DNA from: a virus
Taxonomy: Duplodnaviria > Caudoviricetes
Direction: 5' to 3' (one strand)
DNA: 64,000 nt
IMG/VR virus record: IMGVR_UViG_3300027708_000013
In this document: positions 51,889 to 57,149 of the stretch, one piece after another
How the letters are laid out: every line of letters starts with the position of its first letter
How positions within the stretch are numbered: the stretch's first letter is position 1
The notes under the pieces: model-generated
Told to the model about the DNA's origin: nothing
Database searches by the model: none
The model's input: only the letters and a program-made list of their open reading frames with translations
Made by a program: the position numbers and the translations under genes

Positions 51889-52092
51889 TTACACTTCTAC
51901 TGTGCCGTTTTGTATGGCCAACAGGGTTGAAATCAATGCATCGCTGTGTTGCAGTTCTGCACGATCTGCTGTTCTTTTATAAAGTGTTCTAGATTGTTGT
52001 GTGGCCGACAATATCATGTCGTATCTATTGCCGCCGGCGATTCTAACACATTTTTCAATATCAATTTCAGTGCCTCTGCTGATTGGTTTCAT
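51889..52092 (-). CDS. RNA polymerase omega subunit (RpoZ)-like protein
   Basis: IEKCVRIAGGNRYDMILSATQQSR...ALISTLLAIQNG resembles the omega NRYxLVL...AL.EI..G pattern; AAGGA RBS. Confidence 0.6.
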   Translation of the reverse strand: MKPISRGTEIDIEKCVRIAGGNRYDMILSATQQSRTLYKRTADRAELQHSDALISTLLAIQNGTVEV

Positions 52093-52403: not shown

Positions 52404-52447
52404 TCTAGTTACTAGTGTAACATCTATCGCAATATGTGTCTAGCGTT

Positions 52448-52555
52448 TTTGATGGTTTTTGAGTCGGGAAAACCGTCAAACCCGGTGTCAACAGCCCATC
52501 CCCGGTTTCGTTGACAGCGGATGCTGATTAACAACCTTGCGGTGCGGGGTCAGCA
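52448..52555 (-). ncRNA. Unknown structured RNA with pseudoknot potential
   Basis: Three helices plus complementary loops. Confidence 0.5.
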
Positions 52556-52561
52556 ACAACT

Positions 52562-53558: not shown

Positions 53559-53634
53559 TGGCGCTCTCGACCGGATTCGAACCGGTGTACTCACCGTGAA
53601 AGGGTGATGTCCTAGGCCTCTAGACGACGGGAGC
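53559..53634 (-). tRNA. tRNA-Glu(TTC)
   Basis: Loop CT-TTC-AC, CCA. Confidence 0.92.
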
Positions 53635-53641
53635 ATAAAAC

Positions 53642-53756
53642 TGGTGTTTGTGTTTGGCGCTTGAATCCACGGCAACCCTGACTCTTCATGGCCGGTCCTG
53701 ACACGTGGTCGACTTTGGTCAGTATTTCGGTGTTCCATTGTAGTTGCTACACAAAC
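53642..53756 (-). ncRNA. tRNA-like RNA with acceptor stem and CCA but no normal anticodon arm
   Basis: GTTTGTG/CACAAAC-A-CCA ends; TTCAAGC pseudo T-loop; internal GCAAC/GTTGC helix. Confidence 0.55.
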
Positions 53757-53776: not shown

Positions 53777-53850
53777 TGAAGCGGGGGCTGGATTCGAACC
53801 AACGACCTTCAGGTTATGAGCCTGGCATGCTACCGCTACACTACCCCGCA
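53777..53850 (-). tRNA. tRNA-Met(CAT), initiator-like
   Basis: T1:T72 mismatch, GCGGGG acceptor like fMet; 3' end TCA, not CCA. Confidence 0.8.
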
Positions 53851-54467: not shown

Positions 54468-54556
54468 CAAATTAGTGACCCGGTTCGTAAACAGTATTGA
54501 TTGATTTACAGGGGCGTCAGGCCTCCAATGGACTTTTTAGGGTGCCAATTCTTTTG

Positions 54557-54657
54557 ACTATATTGAAACACACTGTTGAGATTTCACTTTTCAAGTCAGG
54601 GTCCGGATGACCAAGCGCCGCTTCTCGCAGGTAGAAAACAATGTGCTTCAATATAGT
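54557..54657 (-). ncRNA. Long-stem RNA element with AGTGAAATC motif
   Basis: About 20-bp closing stem CTATATTGAAGCACATTGTT/AACAGTGTGTTTCAATATAG plus two inner hairpins. Confidence 0.55.
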
Positions 54658-54658
54658 A

Positions 54659-54796
54659 TGTTTGTGGTAAGGATTCGCACCTTACACCACGGTTGCCCTA
54701 AATTACTCGATGATAGTCTCAACCAGTGCGGCCGCACCTTCGAGTAGTTCCACCTTTCACCCAACCGTATATACCTGTCTCTTATACGACACAAAC
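54659..54796 (-). ncRNA. tRNA-like cloverleaf with a large insertion in the anticodon loop
   Basis: GTTTGTG/CACAAAC acceptor, GTATA/TATAC D-arm, GGTTG/CAACC stem, GTAAGG-TGCGAAT-CCTTAC T-arm. Confidence 0.55.
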
Positions 54797-54800
54797 TTAC

Positions 54801-54921
54801 CATATTAAAACTATATCAATATCTTCCTTCTCTGACAAGAAGGCGTTTCGCAGTGTGTCAGCACCACCGAATGTTGACTCCGATCAGGAGTATGGCACCC
54901 GTCGATATAATTTTAATATAG
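54801..54921 (-). ncRNA. Long-stem RNA element
   Basis: Imperfect 20-bp inverted repeat enclosing hairpins CTCCTGATCGGAG and CCTTCTTGTCAGAGAAGG. Confidence 0.45.
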
Positions 54922-54955: not shown

Positions 54956-54967
54956 TTGTTAAAGAAC
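54956..54967 (-). promoter_or_regulatory. rrn-type boxA antitermination element
   Basis: GTTCTTTAACAA, one mismatch from rrn boxA GCTCTTTAACAA, just after a promoter. Confidence 0.65.
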
Positions 54968-54989
54968 TGTAATTTCTTACTATACATGT

Positions 54990-55018
54990 ATTATACGGTA
55001 TTGTGAATTACCAGTCAA
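54990..55018 (-). promoter_or_regulatory. Internal sigma70 promoter of the tRNA array
   Basis: TTGACT-17 bp-TATAAT. Confidence 0.85.
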
Positions 55019-55051: not shown

Positions 55052-55143
55052 TGGCGGAAGGCAGAAGAGTCGAACTCCATCCCCGTTAGGAGAACCTGGT
55101 TTTCAAGGCCAGTCGCAGGACCATCCCCGCTGCATTACCTTCC
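55052..55143 (-). tRNA. tRNA-Ser(TGA), 8/4 allo-tRNA-like fold
   Basis: Acceptor GGAAGGTA/TGCCTTCC (8 bp), T-stem GGAG/CTTC (4 bp), long V-arm, G73, CCA. Confidence 0.8.
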
Positions 55144-56943: not shown

Positions 56944-56991
56944 TCTTAGATAAAATATAAAATGGATTAAATCTTATCTAAGACCCCCGGG
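56941..56991 (-). promoter_or_regulatory. Putative antiterminator hairpin
   Basis: Perfect 13-bp GGGTCTTAGATAA/TTATCTAAGACCC; the 3' arm shares CCC(TGG) with the terminator 5' arm. Confidence 0.75.
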
Positions 56992-57111
56992 TTCACGATT
57001 GCTGTTGCTGTCAATTGACATCGCTATCGTTGCAAACTGTAGCCAATTGGCCAACACGCCTGATGTTTTCGGCTGTGCATGTAAACAAGTGGTATAGTTT
57101 CTTAATTTCAT
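56974..57111 (-). CDS. Putative leader (attenuator) peptide, 45 aa, containing all 20 amino acids
   Basis: Manual translation MKLRNYTTCLHAQPKTSGVLANWLQFATIAMSIDSNSNREPGGLR*; stop codon lies in the antiterminator 5' arm. Confidence 0.7.
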   Translation of the reverse strand: MKLRNYTTCLHAQPKTSGVLANWLQFATIAMSIDSNSNREPGGLR

Positions 57112-57120
57112 AATATATCT

Positions 57121-57149
57121 AGTATAGTTTATTTAGCATTTTGTGTCAA
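57121..57149 (-). promoter_or_regulatory. Sigma70 promoter (with embedded late motif CTAAATA) of the leader/tRNA operon
   Basis: TTGACA-17 bp-TATACT; only 9 nt from the -10 to the leader ATG. Confidence 0.88.

Follow-up and report, generated by a model that had tools for sequence, protein, structure and literature searches.

A 115-nt element lies between two tRNA genes in the tRNA array of a large phage and itself begins and ends like a tRNA. What kind of RNA would it encode, and what use would a phage have for it? An earlier note on this DNA had described a tRNA mimic without an anticodon arm, and had suggested either a decoy for host toxins or a small tmRNA-like RNA.

The locus

The window, that is, the whole stretch of 64,000 nucleotides analysed here, is part of a large T4-like phage genome, encoding UvsW and DnaB-like helicases and a chaperonin. 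Judged by helicase, its nearest cultured relatives are the jumbo phages PA5oct, Paride and Atu_ph07 (about 46% identity), and contigs related to the window reach 356-383 kb. The tRNA array occupies the minus strand at 51.8-56.7 kb and is headed by sigma-70-like promoters. Within it, the element (53642-53756, minus strand; first G at 53756, CCA end at 53642) is placed 21 nt after tRNA-Met (53778-53850) and 7 nt before tRNA-Glu (53559-53634). Its place between Glu and Met and the encoded A73 and CCA were as the earlier note had described them, and a T-loop-like heptamer lies at 53659-53665. Neither this element nor a second one at 54659-54796 was called by ARAGORN or Rfam, and in Rfam 53642-53756 matched no family even at an E value of 10. 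Folded alone, the element did no better than shuffled sequences (z = 0.07), so the case against chance rests on homologues.

Homologues and distribution

The first four homologues came from loci fetched via a neighbouring phosphoesterase gene; further members were obtained with conserved-core patterns, a covariance model and a second, divergent subfamily. The family now comprises at least 165 distinct homologues of 106-120 nt, nearly all of them in tRNA arrays of uncultured freshwater jumbo-phage contigs. A tRNA or tmRNA on the same strand lies within 600 nt of 155 of the 165 members, and in no case were opposite-strand genes the only ones so close. When partial contigs of related phages were chosen irrespective of the element, 7 of 21 carried it. 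One locus (L476) holds two copies, at 1700-1816 and 2181-2294 on the minus strand. We also found phage-encoded permuted tmRNAs (L207:4585-4903, L626:6023-6287, and further ones in L216, L218 and L270), and in four distinct cases the spacer of a permuted tmRNA is a family member.

Outside these arrays the searches returned little. BLAST searches of 50,697 cultured phage records with the element and with a homologue close to the consensus gave nothing meaningful, an exact 21-mer search gave nothing, and the family models had no match in T4, Vibrio phage phi-Grn1, Paride, Atu_ph07, XaC1 or a 635-kb phage. Among the matches listed from a loose scan of genome contigs there was one true match, on a tRNA-array contig (L358) in a 0.9-Mb bin that is probably a binned phage; matches from a scan on acceptor stems alone were judged to be chance. 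A single contig of a lake metatranscriptome, which could be DNA, holds a relative beside tRNA-Tyr; RNA runs were seen as contigs with small shares, from which ends, strand and level are not readable.

Conserved secondary structure

Comparative data support six helices, namely P1 (8 bp), P2, P2a, P3a, P3b and a short T-stem, with covariation in each of them. In the model-fitted alignment, which was fitted to this structure, 96% of cells were paired and 25 of 29 pairs showed compensatory changes, as against 33-49% in slid controls. A plain, unfitted alignment, in which P1 is partly out of register, gave 87% of cells paired and 21 of 29 pairs compensatory, and ranking by mutual information put these same pairs at the top. 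Homologue covariation, which had been named as a check on the element, was found in every helix, and because the helices covary across homologues a decaying tRNA is ruled out. The features of the element are as follows.

53642-53756, minus strand: whole RNA gene, 115 nt including A73 and CCA; 109-112 bits with the family model, the first version of which had this sequence in its training set
53749-53756, minus strand: P1 acceptor-like stem (8 bp), 5' strand; all 8 pairs compensatory, 97.8% paired
53646-53653, minus strand: P1 acceptor-like stem, 3' strand, pairing with 53749-53756
53743-53747, minus strand: P2, proposed D-stem equivalent, 5' strand; covariation
53739-53742, minus strand: invariant internal-loop strand UACA; homologue alignment
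53735-53738 with 53688-53691, minus strand: helix P2a; covariation
53688-53738, minus strand: rod of P2a, P3a and P3b, proposed insertion in the D-loop; covariation
53708-53713, minus strand: self-complementary hexamer of the apical loop (53703-53717), where kissing is predicted; homologue comparison
53683-53687, minus strand: invariant internal-loop strand GAAGA, putatively kink-turn-like; homologue alignment
53677-53678, minus strand: GG, proposed equivalents of tRNA G18 and G19 with a predicted T-loop elbow contact; 18/55 covariation
53672-53676, minus strand: P2, 3' strand; a 2-nt linker to the T-stem at the place of the anticodon arm
53655-53669, minus strand: short T-arm with loop 53659-53665; T54, C56 and A58 invariant
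53642-53645, minus strand: A73, then an encoded CCA that the family does not conserve; N-CC in 65%
54990-55018, minus strand: nearest strong sigma-70-like promoter upstream in the tRNA array; by consensus match, 11/12
54810-54838, minus strand: weaker sigma-70-like promoter; by consensus match

The acceptor had been given as 7 bp; all seven pairs are present, but the stem is actually 8 bp, with one further U-A pair. It had also been called identical to that of 54659-54796, and the 7-bp stem is indeed common to both, although 54659-54796 lacks CCA. This shared sequence is no family trait, and acceptor stems vary within each of the two families. The purine-rich stretch after P2 was considered as a D-loop and rejected, its GG being paired in P2a with compensatory changes.

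A probable tRNA-like elbow

The acceptor and T branch totals 12-13 bp, made up of the 8-bp stem and the short T-arm. Most members have an atypical T-loop with a purine-purine closing pair; in one subfamily, an 8-bp acceptor stem is joined to a canonical 4-bp T-stem and T-loop, and comparison across the family establishes the homology of this arm to a T-arm. An anticodon arm with a 7-nt loop is absent from the family, 2-3 nt joining P2 to the T-stem instead.

The purine-G just before the 3' strand of P2 is GG in 163 members, all with U55, and AG in the remaining 2, both with G55. Real tRNAs at the same loci vary in a like manner: AG without GG in the D-loop occurs in 9 of 14 with G55, as against 1 of 1759 with U55. 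The two A18/G55 members are related to each other, and the swap is therefore probably a single evolutionary event. Since it matches the swap in real tRNAs, we infer that P2 is the D-stem, that the purine-G represents positions 18 and 19, and that the tRNA elbow has been kept. On this reading, the anticodon arm would have been deleted and a rod of about 60 nt inserted in the D-loop. A tRNA mimic without an anticodon arm is thus well borne out by the 12-13-bp branch, the canonical T-arm of one subfamily and the tRNA-like 18/55 swap.

The palindromic loop and the internal loop

The most unusual feature of the RNA, missed in the earlier note, is a covarying palindromic loop at the end of the rod. 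A Watson-Crick palindromic hexamer is found in a fixed central window of the loop in 150 of 165 members, or in 164 if G-U pairs are allowed; counted by loop boundaries, 108 of 112 members have it (P 1e-10). The same hexamer occurs in 112 of the 165, so the independent changes number about 20. There are 19 different palindromic hexamers, and a conservative count, with chance at about 18% per class, gives P of about 8e-7. Comparison of the members thus indicates that the palindrome is under selection. All four self-complementary dinucleotides occur at its centre, so the hairpin tip cannot explain it, and inspection of the alignments showed nothing else in the RNA that changes with the hexamer. 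Because adjacent bases cannot pair in one strand and nothing else covaries with them, the simplest explanation is that the hexamer pairs with another copy of the RNA, and the apical palindrome points to a kissing-loop homodimer site. Taken alone, the structure together with the predicted dimer appears highly probable to us. A restriction or protein site on DNA was also considered, and is unlikely given the variety of hexamer sequences.

In the retroviral dimer initiation site, purines flank a palindrome of six bases within a hairpin loop, and the sequence of the palindrome is interchangeable if it stays self-complementary. That site is part of a eukaryotic viral genome and has no tRNA-like domain, so that the analogy is one of mechanism only. 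The two paralogues in L476 differ in palindrome, which would keep their dimers apart.

Every member has UACA in one strand and GAAGA in the opposite strand of the internal loop between P2 and P2a; these invariant motifs served as search patterns, and cross-searches leaving each of them free still recovered it. In a consensus kink-turn, tandem G-A and A-G pairs come after a 3-nt bulge. Here the bulge and the first G-A agree with this, C stands in place of G as the second partner, and more unpaired bases come next; the internal loop may resemble a kink-turn with a non-standard second pair. A bend at this point could direct the rod away from the elbow, or the loop could bind a partner. Comparison with a hammerhead core, with a CsrA site and with an 11-nt receptor led to the rejection of all three, the matching bases being variable or paired.

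Proposed mechanism

We propose that the element encodes a stable phage non-coding RNA with a fold derived from that of tRNA, a self-dimerising elbow mimic that binds a tRNA-recognising protein; to this whole package we would give an even chance. The RNA would be co-transcribed with the tRNAs and excised by host tRNA-processing enzymes via its 12-13-bp acceptor/T branch, or via a long closing duplex in some members. RNase P, 3' nucleases or RNase III would presumably release it from the polycistron, and tmRNA maturation would free those members that lie in spacers. Docking of the T-loop on the G18/G19 equivalents would form the tRNA-like elbow, as suggested by the one covarying event. With no anticodon arm, the RNA cannot decode. 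The rod in the D-loop would end in the palindromic loop, where two copies probably kiss in vivo, and the dimer would show two elbows and two copies of the invariant internal loop. Such a dimer may be a bivalent platform, serving as a decoy or a tether for some protein that recognises the shape of tRNA and not its CCA end; here the protein-binding role, the partner and the benefit are our conjecture. That this amounts to a new phage RNA class, in which a self-dimerising bivalent tRNA elbow captures or tethers a host tRNA-recognising protein, we put forward tentatively, as possible rather than probable.

It may instead be, though we think it somewhat unlikely, that the tRNA-like part is a handle for maturation and stability only, and that the internal loop and the dimer form an RNA-only assembly, a ligand pocket or a catalytic core in the manner of GOLLD and ROOL. 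Conservation is strictest in the internal loop, not at the ends, and the neighbouring 54659-54796 has a handle like this one joined to an unrelated core. GOLLD and ROOL are themselves phage or prophage RNAs near tRNA islands that homo-oligomerise by kissing loops (10.1101/2024.12.08.627333). However, they form cages of 600-800 nt without a tRNA-like branch, whereas the phage RNA has about 110 nt and one self-complementary loop, and it has no Rfam match to either. Moreover, the T-loop and its partner purine are kept even where the ends lie in duplexes of 17-20 bp, which seems beyond what a cutting handle needs, and no ribozyme or riboswitch family of Rfam matches.

The 3' end

CCA is encoded in 16 of the 165 members (10%), N-CC followed by another base in 92 (56%), and 57 (35%) have no CC at positions 74-75. 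In contrast, 786 of 805 neighbouring tRNA genes at the same loci (98%) encode CCA. The N-CC of 108 members lies 12-13 nt from the T-loop, against a background of 2-7%, and among these 108 a G1-C72 pair is present in 86 and U(-1)-A73 in 85. Together, these two pairs are the usual RNase P context. Several members without CC have closing duplexes of 17-20 bp with the ends fully paired. By this comparison the CCA end is optional in the family, which counts against both a family-wide CCA decoy and a mini-tmRNA.

A decoy against host toxins acting on the 3' ends of tRNAs (toxSAS, MenT-type nucleotidyltransferases, GNAT acetyltransferases), as the earlier note had suggested, is consequently improbable as a family-wide role. 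The element itself and 16 members do encode CCA, and 92 more carry N-CC at a tRNA-like distance; RNase T trimming and the CCA-adding enzyme could complete such ends, so that the host could repair CCA in two thirds of the members. Yet the remaining third lacks CC, in several cases with paired ends, beside tRNA genes that nearly always encode CCA. The acceptor sequence has no conserved identity element (G3-U70 in 2 of 79, and U-A in 53642-53756), and a CCA-end decoy leaves the rod and the palindrome unexplained.

The element might also be a precursor aid for processing or clustering that is discarded once it has closed the ends of adjacent tRNAs, or of the halves of a permuted tmRNA, and has cross-linked nascent transcripts. 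Four distinct members lie in a permuted tmRNA spacer, and the flanks often form duplexes that take in the CCA of the upstream tRNA; but neighbours vary freely, the same slot has unrelated RNAs in relatives, and a discarded spacer needs neither an elbow nor an invariant loop, so such a role is quite improbable. A mini-tmRNA, a working or decaying tRNA, or a DNA-level mobile hairpin could account for the tRNA-like ends and position and for the variable place in the arrays, but G3-U70 in 2 of 79, 106-120 nt without a tag reading frame, the missing anticodon arm, and strong compensatory change with RNA-type tertiary covariation already largely refute these readings, and we regard them as most improbable. 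No pseudoknots and no Rfam tmRNA match were found in the element, and real permuted tmRNAs hold it as a spacer.

Comparison with known RNAs

The system that the self-dimerising elbow mimic would work most like is the YrlA Y RNA (RF02553; PMC4201824), a non-coding RNA in which a tRNA-like domain of D, T and acceptor arms is joined to a second module. It too is present in phages and can be a substrate of RNase P and the CCA enzyme (PMC4201824). YrlA is circularly permuted, with the order T-acceptor-D, and has a Ro60-binding motif and a Ro60 gene within 4 kb (PMC4201824), whereas the phage RNA has true 5' and 3' acceptor ends and a palindromic rod. A search for YrlA features in the phage RNA found no 5' Ro-binding motif, no permuted order and no RF02553 match, and no TROVE/Ro60 gene turned up either among the scanned flanking ORFs or in four contigs of 236-383 kb that carry the RNA, of which two are at least 96% complete.

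RNA C and RNA D of T4 (rnaC, rnaD; PMC3014915, PMC9697503) are likewise stable RNAs, of 119-139 nt, in a phage tRNA cluster, and RNA C has a T-arm near its 3' end. Their interior fold differs, however, and they are not homologous: there was no sequence or model match to either, and neither family model matches in T4. The 8/4 split of the subfamily with the canonical T-arm is that described for the allo-tRNAs of 8/4 and 9/3 type (PMC5389517), but these keep the anticodon arm and CCA and can decode, whereas the phage RNA has no anticodon arm and mostly no encoded CCA. A tRNA-Ser(UGA) at 55056-55143 on the minus strand of the window, missed by ARAGORN and weakly matched by a tRNA-Sec model, seems to have the 8/4 fold, with an 8-bp acceptor and a 4-bp T-stem.

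In the literature we found no description of the RNA family, though a prior listing in a catalogue of 10,006 candidate viral RNAs is possible (PMC10690425), and nothing on a tRNA elbow with a self-kissing rod, on permuted tmRNA spacers or on kink-turn rules that bears on it. The family is well conserved and apparently undescribed, and the combination of a tRNA elbow with a self-kissing rod appears to be new.

Other elements of the arrays

Several further elements were observed in these arrays. The RNA at 54659-54796 (minus strand) belongs to a separate family, of which only three members were found, the others being at L231:5130-5244 and L723:3972; they share a tRNA-like acceptor/T handle and a near-invariant core that includes a hairpin with a palindromic 4-nt loop. 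One of them ends in CCA and one has a different acceptor, and the family models rejected 54659-54796 as a member of the 53642-53756 family. Next to it on the same strand, a long duplex closes the structured element at 54556-54657 (z -5.2), which is conserved in L530 and occurs twice in L480. Downstream of tRNA-Met, 52420-52560 (minus strand) is a conserved structured RNA with 13 distinct homologues and no Rfam match. In related phages, a conserved non-coding tract of about 200 nt follows tRNA-Thr (L132:835-1134, L143:1440-1743, L152:1228-1516, L179:1879-2178), and after it comes a slot bounded by fixed AU-rich arms, whose RNA differs between phages, like an exchangeable cassette. Unannotated stem-closed RNAs of 150-250 nt also lie between their tRNA genes (L139:1205-1452, L151:1470-1718, L164:1429-1595, L189:5625-5848, L201:83-238).

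At the head of the tRNA operon, 56974-57149 (minus strand) holds a promoter, a short Trp-containing ORF and a GC-rich hairpin with a T-run, is kept in relatives, and looks like an attenuator. An internal promoter in 54960-55018 (minus strand) is followed by a boxA-like sequence and a duplex-forming arm, comparable to rRNA operons. An ORF of 67 aa at 51889-52092 (minus strand), conserved in dozens of relatives and without a match in Pfam, presumably resembles the omega subunit of RNA polymerase.

Implications

Non-tRNA RNAs of phage tRNA clusters, such as T4 RNA C and RNA D, GOLLD and ROOL, have had no assigned function for decades. The family described here is small, is abundant in public freshwater data, and makes sharp predictions concerning the elbow bases, the six dimer bases and a dispensable CCA. 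If our reading is true, a natural dimeriser of the tRNA elbow, its kissing codes interchangeable and about 20 in number, would represent a new RNA architecture, giving a handle on the binding partners of phage tRNA mimics and a ready part for RNA engineering. For the phages themselves, it might mean an RNA-only counter-defence or scaffold, distinct from tRNA replacement, whose target may be, for example, a dimeric anti-phage tRNA nuclease.
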